Source: Escherichia phage Perceval
Strand: one strand, 5' to 3'
Sequence record: OV696612
Length of the DNA: 50,143 bases
The translations under genes and the position numbers were made by a program. Every line of letters starts with the position of its first letter. The stretch's first letter is position 1. This document shows, piece by piece, positions 46,572 to 47,122 of the stretch. The notes beneath the pieces were generated by a model. That model ran no database searches and was not told the DNA's origin. It saw only the letters and a list, made by a program, of their open reading frames with translations.

Positions 46572-46886
46572 ATGACTCAAAACTATGAACTGATTGTGAA
46601 AGGGATCCGCAATTTTGAGAATAAAGTTACGGTAACTTTAGCGTTACGGGACAAAAAACGCTTTGACGGTGAAATTTTTGACCTGGACATCTCGCTGGAC
46701 CGTGTTGAAGGTGCCGCGCTGGAGTTTTATGAGGCTGCAGCCAGAAGGAGCATCAGACAGGTCTTCCTGGATGTTGCTGCCGGGTTATGTGAAGGGGACG
46801 AGCTGTTGCCAGAAACGCGCCCCTGTTCAGAGGCGCGGTATACCATAAAAATTAACAGTTCAGATAACTCGATTACTGGTTGTTAG
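46572..46886 (+). CDS. hypothetical protein between holin and endolysin (possibly YdfR/DUF1327-like)
   Basis: 104-aa ORF starting 5 nt after the holin stop; position matches ydfR-type genes in other lambdoid lysis cassettes (from memory). Confidence 0.5.
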   Translation: MTQNYELIVKGIRNFENKVTVTLALRDKKRFDGEIFDLDISLDRVEGAALEFYEAAARRSIRQVFLDVAAGLCEGDELLPETRPCSEARYTIKINSSDNSITGC

Positions 46887-47122
46887 CCTTTTGTTTCAGT
46901 TGGTTTTCCAATATCTTTCATTGGTAGCAGCATTTCCAGATTGCTTTTGATATATGGATTATTTACATGTTCATTTAATTGATGAATGATTCCATTTTTT
47001 TCATTCTGGTCCAATACGGAAAATATTACTGTAATCATATATTTAAGAGCTTCAATTTCTTTTGCTGTTGATGCAGGAGATGAGCAGTCAGCTGTAATAT
47101 TGATAAAAACTTCTTTTTGCAT
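46883..47122 (-). CDS. hypothetical protein (79 aa), AT-rich, convergent with the preceding ORF
   Basis: Minus-strand ORF with ATG at 47122, AT-rich; stop overlaps the stop of the plus-strand 104-aa ORF. Confidence 0.4.
   Translation of the reverse strand: MQKEVFINITADCSSPASTAKEIEALKYMITVIFSVLDQNEKNGIIHQLNEHVNNPYIKSNLEMLLPMKDIGKPTETKG

Follow-up and report, generated by a model that had tools for sequence, protein, structure and literature searches.

The lysis region of Escherichia phage Perceval (sequence record OV696612; the whole stretch of 50,143 nucleotides (nt) is referred to here as the window) carries two small open reading frames (ORFs) between the gene for an S21-type holin and that for the endolysin, R. 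The first, ORF1, is read with the late genes and belongs to the YdfR (DUF1327) family, and the second, ORF2, lies on the opposite strand. In the reading that we favour, to which we give a probability of about 0.65, ydfR would be a normal late gene and ORF2 the cargo of an autonomous antisense moron cassette, equipped with a structured RNA leader that serves as an expression platform shared with other accessory genes. The definition of morons goes back to work on phages HK97 and HK022 (Juhala et al. 2000, cited in PMC3594210), and the ORF2 cassette fits it on three of four features, namely extra DNA, deviant base composition and a terminator of its own, the fourth, a promoter, being present as a candidate.

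ORF2 encodes a conserved Srb-like protein

ORF2 is convergent with ORF1, overlaps its stop codon by 4 nt and is preceded by a Shine-Dalgarno (SD) sequence, GAGGA (47129-47133), 6 nt before its ATG. By its substitution pattern, ORF2 is a real, conserved coding gene and not a chance ORF, because the ratio of non-synonymous to synonymous substitution rates (dN/dS) across four E. coli lineages is low in its own frame only (0.19-0.30, mean 0.24, vs 0.46-1.9 in the other five frames) and because it matches phrog_21218, a family of unknown function, over its full length. A word-indexed search with ORF2 returned just eight clusters, all from E. coli, to which a full HMMER scan added homologues of 73-74 amino acids (aa) from Salmonella enterica (49% identity) and Klebsiella (44%), the latter found on more than 1000 contigs of K. 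pneumoniae and K. variicola, and a protein-pattern scan of one genome per species gave no relatives. ORF2 has no Pfam match, and PDB sequence searches gave no solved relative. In NCBIfam nothing was significant, and the candidate IraP (E 0.09) was rejected.

When the ORF2 family was compared by hhalign with gp23 of HK022, annotated as 'Srb protein; moron gene product', the two aligned over 57 columns with 94.7% probability (E 5.7e-8). On the strength of this alignment, ORF2 adds a member to the Srb-like moron proteins, whose annotation in HK022 dates from 2000. The structural model has three predicted helices, with a predicted local distance difference test score (pLDDT) of 63, and we infer that ORF2 makes a three-helix protein of the HK022 Srb (gp23) family, most likely a small binder located in the cytoplasm. 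Proteins of the ORF2 family diverge far faster than the leader that precedes them, and between E. coli and Salmonella the leader is more conserved than the ORF2 coding sequence.

A mobile and dispensable antisense cassette

The cassette occupies ~445 nt of the minus strand (~46809-47256) and comprises, in this order, 134 nt upstream of the gene, ORF2, a 3′ untranslated stretch and a guanine-cytosine (GC) hairpin. As a module of 374-445 nt with 81-89% identity, it is common to loci with differing flanks, and its left end falls just past the hairpin. This hairpin of 8-9 base pairs (46816-46837), CGCGCCUCU-GAAC-AGGGGCGCG, lies past the ORF2 stop, folds in all four lineages and is followed on the minus strand of the window by the U tract GUUUCUGG; in relatives it is followed by TTTTCC(TTTT), and the copy at locus L013, with the tail TTTTCCTTTT, was called a terminator by the prediction tool. 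The hairpin stands inside the ydfR codons for …ETRPCSEAR, and the complement of the ORF2 3′ end encodes the last ~20 residues of YdfR. The GC content is 0.28-0.33 across 46840-47139, the ORF2 stretch, vs ~0.5 in the flanks, and the cassette is extra DNA when compared with collinear relatives. As to the promoter, a -10-like TAnnnT hexamer stands at a steady distance, 86-90 nt before the ATG, in the ORF2 copies of E. coli, Salmonella and Klebsiella, and gave no match in a consensus scan.

The module occurs in cassettes of three types: with an S21 holin, as in the window; with an HP1-type holin and DUF1327 (L009 and L012); and with holin_8, holin_3_7 and an M15 peptidase (L013-L016). In the last of these it lies at ~2872-3667, upstream of the holin_8/holin_3_7/M15-peptidase genes, the YdfR tail (CSEARYTIKINSSDNSIAGC) now ends an otherwise different protein of 143 or 109 aa (phrog_11851), and the R leader has been carried along up to a mutated start codon. 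This arrangement looks like the footprint of an illegitimate transfer from an S-ydfR-R cassette.

Loss takes several forms. Among 5426 E. coli genomes, ~102 hold the whole of ORF2 and several hundred a deletion remnant only. In mEp460 and NT1N34, a 315-nt deletion removed ORF2 and joined the ydfR tail and the last ~45 nt of ORF2 to the R start region, and the ydfR-R junctions of K-12 Qin and PhiR40_1 also have no ORF2. A run of seven A residues within ORF2 is a slippage hot spot, giving 48-aa forms when shortened to A6 (L013-L016 and P0007) and a 54-aa form when extended to A8 (L017); the frameshifted copies are identical to intact sister copies or differ from them at one site, and in IMG/VR the run is found as A7 in 11 copies, as A6 in 2 and as A8 in 0. 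In its make-up the cassette is self-contained, and it is both mobile and dispensable.

The ydfR-R slot of phage Chlobot (L002) is occupied by an unrelated antisense gene (2078-2350, minus strand; 90 aa; full-length match to phrog_2411, E 1.6e-59), which overlaps the 3′ end of ydfR by 35 nt. The presence of a different antisense gene at this place points to the junction as a recurrent landing site for antisense cargo.

A structured leader ahead of ORF2

The ORF2 transcript would begin with a leader of three helices. P1 pairs UCAGCC (47206-47201) with GGCUGA (47151-47146), P2 is a hairpin (47200-47179) with the loop GUAGGA, and P3 pairs GGGG(G) (47161-47157) with CCCC (47141-47138), followed by the SD sequence (47133-47129). 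Since GGCUGA sits inside the P3 loop, P1 and P3 together would form a pseudoknot. The same layout is found in E. coli, Salmonella and Klebsiella: UCAGCC, the hairpin CGUCAGUG-GU(A/G)GGA-CACUGGCG, a variable linker, GGCUGA between complementary arms, and the SD sequence. RNAalifold predicts P1 and P2, with compensatory change at three P2 pairs, and in ten leader sequences 96% of the cells are paired vs 23-39% with slid partners, values attained by 0 of 500 shuffles. Frequent U·G pairs assign the fold to the cargo-sense strand.

A covariance model extended this picture to 102 matches (71 distinct sequences, among the matches listed), in which 96.2% of positions are paired vs 28-48% in slid controls. 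Compensatory change is seen at seven pairs in total, five of the eight in P2 and two of the five in P3, the latter being ~90% paired, and the six pairs of P1 are essentially invariant, an invariance that, like that of part of P2, is partly by construction in this large alignment, because most leader copies were retrieved with the pattern TCAGCCNNNCNGTGGTNGGACACNG-N20-36-GGCTGA, which fixes these positions. The free positions of P2 and all of P3 are unbiased by the pattern, and copies found through protein similarity or BLAST and not selected by it (E. coli, Salmonella, Klebsiella, HK022, ES18 and mEp213) still have P1.

Rfam 15 gave no gathering-score match in the window or in six other loci, and at E <=1 only two chance-level matches, neither on the leader. 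Single-sequence folds of 47123-47256 were no better than shuffles. A literature search gave nothing for the accession or the PHROG id and no paper with the leader core sequence. A tRNA remnant, considered for GGGGTAGCTCAG (47140-47151), was rejected, ARAGORN finding none in the window.

The leader is most likely a post-transcriptional control element, which is our best guess. Three GGA motifs are conserved in it: in the P2 hexaloop (GUAGGA or GUGGGA), in GAGGGAUGG on the 5′ side of P3, and in the SD sequence (GAGGA or AAGGAA). CsrA binds GGA in hairpin loops and at the SD site, for example in the glgC leader, and a paired 5′ end slows RNase E-dependent decay. The leader could therefore act either through a decay-protecting paired 5′ end or through a GGA-recognizing regulator such as CsrA.

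One leader, many cargos

Scanning with the retrieval pattern gave at least 120 contigs in IMG/VR and 10 places in species-representative genomes, distributed over Enterobacter bugandensis (three), Enterobacter sichuanensis, three Citrobacter species, and isolates of Klebsiella, Kluyvera and Dryocola. The leader is carried by more than 120 prophage contigs of Escherichia, Salmonella, Klebsiella, Citrobacter, Enterobacter and Kluyvera, and ~224 of the 5426 E. coli genomes have a BLAST-detectable, consensus-like copy, which is never annotated. The first ORFs past the leader fall into at least 23 BLAST clusters. Among the matches listed, 45 of 125 cargos belong to the Srb/ORF2-like group (65-75 aa) by iterated profile; other cargos are aspartyl-protease-like proteins of 154-158 aa (PF13975), DUF1883 proteins and small helical or beta-rich proteins without a Pfam match.

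The orientation of these units is uniform, all 83 late-gene neighbours (terminase, holin, lysozyme, Rz or Q) identified at 49 loci, again among the matches listed, lying on the opposite strand. Most leader-driven morons in the same set are not in lysis cassettes but past Rz, close to terminase or within tail operons. In HK022 the leader stands ahead of the gene for gp23 (Srb), which lies between tail genes I and J and converges with that for gp22. In ES18 it precedes gp25, listed as 'possible moron' and located between tail genes M and L, and in mEp213, mEp043 and HK633 it precedes genes downstream of Rz, the mEp213 copy lying, like those of HK022 and ES18, upstream of an annotated moron. Directly upstream of the promoter region of the leader, these phages have a late-strand terminator (AAAAAAAGCCnCC...GGnGGCT), where the window has the R gene instead.

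Covariance model R2 also located the leader ahead of a different antisense ORF in L065 (5693-5920, minus strand), as a diverged copy (37 bits) followed by a 75-aa cargo with two CxxC pairs, zinc-ribbon-like. This cargo and ORF2 are alike over about the first 15 residues only (…FNISCPDCGS vs …INITADCSSP), which suggests that the breakpoint of a cargo exchange can lie within the first few codons.

Several side observations concern the same leader. L083 has two leader-driven genes ~2 kb apart (leaders at 2272-2323 and 4324-4375), one with an Srb-like and one with an aspartyl-protease-like cargo, and in Enterobacter bugandensis the copies L066, L073 and L075 lie on one contig. The cargos of 154-158 aa (L069, L083, L087, L097, L106 and others) resemble retroviral-type aspartyl proteases (PF13975 E 1e-6, PF13650 E 1.5e-5), an unusual protein for a prophage moron. 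Between the late-strand terminator and the -10-like hexamer there is, moreover, a conserved inverted repeat (ATCAGGGTGTT...AACCCTGGT), for example at ~1500-1560 of L194 (HK022), with a diverged copy in the window (CAGGATT...AACCCTGG, 47245-47220), and this repeat could bind a protein or belong to a longer RNA.

YdfR, a regular member of S21-type cassettes

ORF1 is a late-strand gene coupled to that of the holin: it begins 4 nt past the holin stop, with GGGGAGAG (46557-46564) 7 nt before its ATG. The original prediction had suggested a YdfR/DUF1327-like protein, and this proved right: ORF1 scores 132.8 bits against PF07041 (cut-off 25) over model positions 1-90 of 93, matches phrog_2735 over its full length and is labelled 'YdfR family protein' in RefSeq. 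Judged by gene order and family, ydfR belongs regularly in the middle of S21-type lysis cassettes, and here a gene of an already known family stands in its usual place. The order holin-ydfR-lysozyme is also that of K-12 Qin (essQ-ydfR-rrrQ), mEp460, PhiR40_1, PhiR63_1 and others, and, of 5426 complete E. coli genomes, 3993 carry DNA for the N-terminal domain, some with as many as 8 copies. When 5.8 billion proteins were searched, the family was restricted to Escherichia, Shigella and Salmonella. Its members are 103-183 aa long, with the first ~77 residues conserved and the tail existing in several alleles.

Both ORFs had been taken for extra insertions, possibly morons exploiting late transcription. 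This description suits ORF2 as extra, moron-like DNA, but not its supposed mode of expression, because ORF2 lies on the opposite strand, with its own leader and terminator, and cannot exploit late transcription. For ydfR, given how common it is and its place in Qin, the notion of an extra insertion fails; that it can act as a moron elsewhere has some support from ES18, where a DUF1327 gene (gp24) stands among the tail genes and is annotated 'possible moron'.

Functional data on YdfR come from a single paper, the only one found in a literature search, in which two-hybrid and co-purification experiments showed K-12 YdfR to bind the catalytic, N-terminal half of RNase E, residues 1-72 were enough for this binding, RNA co-purified with the protein, and few transcripts were altered by its overproduction (RNA Biol 2026, PMC13232886). 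The window's YdfR is 69% identical to that of K-12 overall and 82% identical over residues 1-72. It is predicted to be soluble, with no membrane segment, and its AlphaFold2 model (pLDDT 68) shows a three-stranded sheet and a long helix (residues 5-73) followed by a disordered tail. The best-supported reading, extrapolated from the K-12 protein, is a soluble late protein that may bind RNase E or RNA. PADLOC gave no defence-system match for YdfR, ORF2, the Chlobot antisense ORF or the 143-aa protein of L013.

A proposed shared platform for antisense accessory genes

In the proposed scheme, ydfR would be translated from the late mRNA directly past the holin, and its product would be a small, soluble, cytoplasmic protein and not a membrane lysis effector, most likely able, by homology to K-12 YdfR, to bind the catalytic half of RNase E and RNA. 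The minus-strand cassette would consist of a weak promoter-like region, the leader with P1, P2 and P3, the SD sequence, the 79-codon gene and the GC hairpin as terminator. Being opposed to the late operon, ORF2 would have its own transcription, most likely in the lysogen, from the weak promoter with the -10-like hexamer TATGTT and independently of Q-dependent late transcription. The transcript would start at or just before UCAGCC, so that its 5′ end would be base-paired. The leader would serve as a shared expression platform for many unrelated accessory genes that lie antisense to the late genes of enterobacterial lambdoid prophages.

More tentatively, and with rather less than even confidence, the leader may represent an undescribed class of cis-regulatory RNA, a common platform through which many unrelated, fast-diverging prophage accessory genes of Enterobacteriaceae, antisense to late operons, would answer one host or phage signal. 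Candidates for that signal would be CsrA, RNase E-dependent decay or a phage factor, and the recurring DUF1327 neighbour, as a candidate RNA- and RNase E-binding protein, could belong to the leader circuit.

Several points weigh against the scheme as drawn here. The RNase E data were obtained with the K-12 paralogue, 69% identical overall, and not with the window's YdfR. In the window the terminator has a degenerate U tract, the candidate promoter agrees at 7 of 12 positions only, and no promoter upstream of ORF2 passes a sigma-70 consensus scan. Part of the large leader alignment is fixed by the retrieval pattern, ORF2 is easily lost, as seen in frameshifted and deleted copies, and its close family has no representative among 50,697 deposited phage genomes.

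Alternative explanations

The original prediction had proposed that the two ORFs could modulate lysis timing. YdfR would then act on the pathway of the pinholin and the signal-arrest-release (SAR) endolysin, and the ORF2 unit would lower or delay endolysin synthesis, either by breaking a translational coupling of ydfR to R or through a transcript complementary to the late mRNA from the ydfR 3′ end to the R start. The position of the ORF2 unit argues for such a role: it is found strictly within lysis cassettes, it overlaps the R leader (47214-47256), itself common to R genes without ORF2, and the ATGA overlap of ydfR and rrrQ in K-12 is lost in the window, where 370 nt separate the ydfR stop from the R start. 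Yet we consider it unlikely, as YdfR is predicted to be soluble and without a membrane segment, DUF1327 genes stand also among tail genes (ES18 gp24), ORF2 is missing from ~98% of E. coli genomes, mEp460 lost ORF2 and keeps its holin, ydfR, lysozyme and Rz, and most leader-driven morons lie elsewhere than in lysis cassettes. In particular, the loss of ORF2 from close relatives, by deletion or frameshift, makes a lysis-timing role less likely, and a direct lysis role of the insertion is unlikely.

Alternatively, YdfR and the antisense gene might be a functional pair, regulator and target, toxin/antitoxin-like or RNA-mediated, arranged tail to tail through their 3′ overlap. E. coli YdfR variants that are 54 to 100% identical are paired with ORF2, a DUF1327 gene (gp24) stands beside the leader-driven gp25 in ES18, the 143-aa protein of L013 has the YdfR tail, and YdfR may bind RNA; in Salmonella prophages, the gene facing the ORF2 homologue tail to tail encodes 97 aa that align over their full length with the YdfR profile, a homology that is weak (hhalign E 6e-4, probability 28%). 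Against these associations stand the great majority of ydfR copies, which have no antisense partner, and most leader-driven cargos, which, among the matches listed, have no DUF1327 neighbour; ES18 gp25 is not Srb-like, and the 150-aa partner of ORF2 in Klebsiella, tried as a YdfR relative, was rejected for its lack of similarity. Taken together, a functional pair is quite improbable.

That ORF2 is a decaying remnant, with selection only on an RNA (the leader or an antisense transcript) or none at all, would agree with the A7-run frameshifts (48- and 54-aa forms), a 67-aa truncation, the partial deletions in several hundred genomes and the greater conservation of the leader between E. coli and Salmonella, but is very unlikely given a dN/dS of 0.24 specific to the ORF2 frame, full-length homologues that persist in three genera, and breaks that are recent, because the frameshifted copies are identical or nearly so to intact ones.

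If ORF2 is, as we favour, the cargo of an antisense cassette with a shared leader, the locus bears on how morons are understood, since each of these is usually regarded as a separate, one-off insertion. That one conserved leader and one orientation are common to dozens of unrelated accessory genes, spread over at least six enterobacterial genera, suggests common regulation and a common route of gene exchange, and an old question becomes testable: how silent prophages express selected genes and how such genes are swapped. Srb-like cargos that diverge much faster than their leader show the pattern that would be expected for conflict with other phages or host defences. The view of YdfR as a soluble late protein that is sometimes a moron sharpens the RNase E lead published in 2026. 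Altogether, the leader lends moderate interest to a locus that is otherwise largely ordinary.

The lysis cassette and its surroundings

This region is 100% identical to a DLP12-like lambdoid prophage in E. coli LF82, where RefSeq names the holin gene essD, and in many other strains. From its sequence, the lysis cassette is of the S21 pinholin/SAR endolysin type. The N-terminal segment of the endolysin is weakly hydrophobic and rich in Ala, Gly and Ser, its catalytic spacing reads E-8-D-5-T, and Rz, Rz1 and Bor/Iss come after it. On this ground the original prediction was sound: its coordinates for the holin, the 104-aa ORF, the 79-aa ORF and the endolysin all hold (Table 1), its S21-type holin, SAR-like endolysin and Rz/Rz1 agree with the PF04971 match and MKSM motif of the first and with the PF00959 match and N-terminal composition of the second, and the 79-aa ORF is convergent and AT-rich as described.

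Table 1. Features of the region between the holin and endolysin genes of the window.
Feature	Position	Strand	Evidence or remark
Holin/pinholin, S21-type (class II), essD-like	46352-46567	+	71 aa; PF04971 E 2e-35; MKSM dual-start motif
ORF1, ydfR (DUF1327)	46572-46886	+	104 aa; PF07041 E 5.1e-39; phrog_2735 E 3.5e-55
Terminator-like element of the ORF2 unit	46809-46837	-	Hairpin 46816-46837 conserved in four lineages
ORF2, predicted Srb-like small helical protein	46883-47122	-	79 aa; phrog_21218 E 1.9e-57
A7 run (T7 on + strand) in ORF2, slippage hot spot	46995-47001	-	A6/A8 variants
Structured 5′ leader of ORF2 (~85 nt)	47123-47206	-	RNAalifold; covariance-model match 47120-47215, 91.6 bits
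Candidate promoter of the ORF2 unit (putative)	47213-47241	-	-10-like TATGTT 47218-47213; weak -35-like TTTATC 47241-47236
R leader and translation start region (…CAGGGTTCAGAAACCGATAAATCCTGATAAATATCC-ATG)	47214-47256	+	Alignments with PhiR40_1, Chlobot, K-12 and mEp460
Endolysin R (phage lysozyme), SAR-like N-terminus	47257-47790	+	PF00959 E 3e-24; phrog_7 endolysin

The arrangement of the window is that of a complete lambda-type genome beginning at cos, with the lysis genes at the right end. A Nu1-like ORF (190-735) and an A-like ORF (710-2635) lie at most 1 nt from the lambda coordinates, and a J-like ORF (15513-18926) and an ORF of integrase size (28037-29179) follow. In LF82, nohD/terminase genes come after the lysis region, and the window accordingly seems to be the permuted, virion form of the prophage. 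A minus-strand run of four ORFs of 275-304 aa each (22393-25842) stands where lambda has its b region.

Close to the lysis genes, the interval from Q (quuD-like) to the holin gene contains an antisense gene for an OmpC/NmpC-like porin (44680-45762, minus strand; PF00267 E 2e-151). The spacer past it (45763-46351) is very AT-rich (GC 0.22-0.36) and includes a plus-strand hairpin, terminator-like, at 46190-46211. Directly past Rz/Rz1 stands an antisense Bor/Iss serum-resistance lipoprotein gene (48280-48621, minus strand), and a TonB-family ORF occupies 49000-49380 (plus strand); these two are further morons of the region from the lysis genes to cos.

Comparison with known systems

YdfR of K-12 Qin belongs to the same Pfam family as that of the window and fills the same slot, between an S21-type holin (essQ) and a lysozyme (rrrQ). 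The two differ in their C-terminal tails (...KHERPHHKYL in K-12 and ...CSEARYTIKINSSDNSITGC in the window) and in what follows, ydfR and rrrQ overlapping directly in Qin, whereas ORF2 fills the interval before R in the window.

The leader shares with CsrA-controlled leaders the presence of GGA in a hairpin loop and in the SD sequence, a resemblance only, and its P2 loop departs from the full consensus of systematic evolution of ligands by exponential enrichment (SELEX).

The closest counterpart of ORF2 is gp23 (Srb) of HK022 (NC_002166), a protein of similar size (~73-79 aa) with the common motif pattern ..C..-..E(I/V).ALK...F..L...KN..I.L... Its gene, too, runs against the late operon, follows the same leader and converges on a small late-strand gene; unlike ORF2, to which it is 26% identical, it lies between tail genes I and J, outside the lysis cassette. 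A literature search found no function for Srb and no meaning of the name 'srb'.

Genes 24 and 25 of ES18 (NC_006949) repeat the convergent arrangement of a late-strand DUF1327 gene and an antisense gene bearing the same leader, with the gene 25 terminator within the 3′ end of gene 24 and terminators annotated on both strands. In contrast to the window, the ES18 unit lies between tail genes M and L, its cargo gp25 (95 aa) is not Srb-like, and a late-strand terminator takes the position upstream of the leader that R has in the window.

A description of a shared structured moron leader was not found in the literature search, and the genome papers of HK97/HK022 or ES18 may mention one. With the classical lambdoid morons, HK97 gene 15 and lambda bor and lom, the ORF2 cassette has in common that it is extra DNA of deviant base composition with its own terminator; what sets it apart is a long, conserved, structured leader common to unrelated cargos, a feature outside the published definition (PMC3594210).

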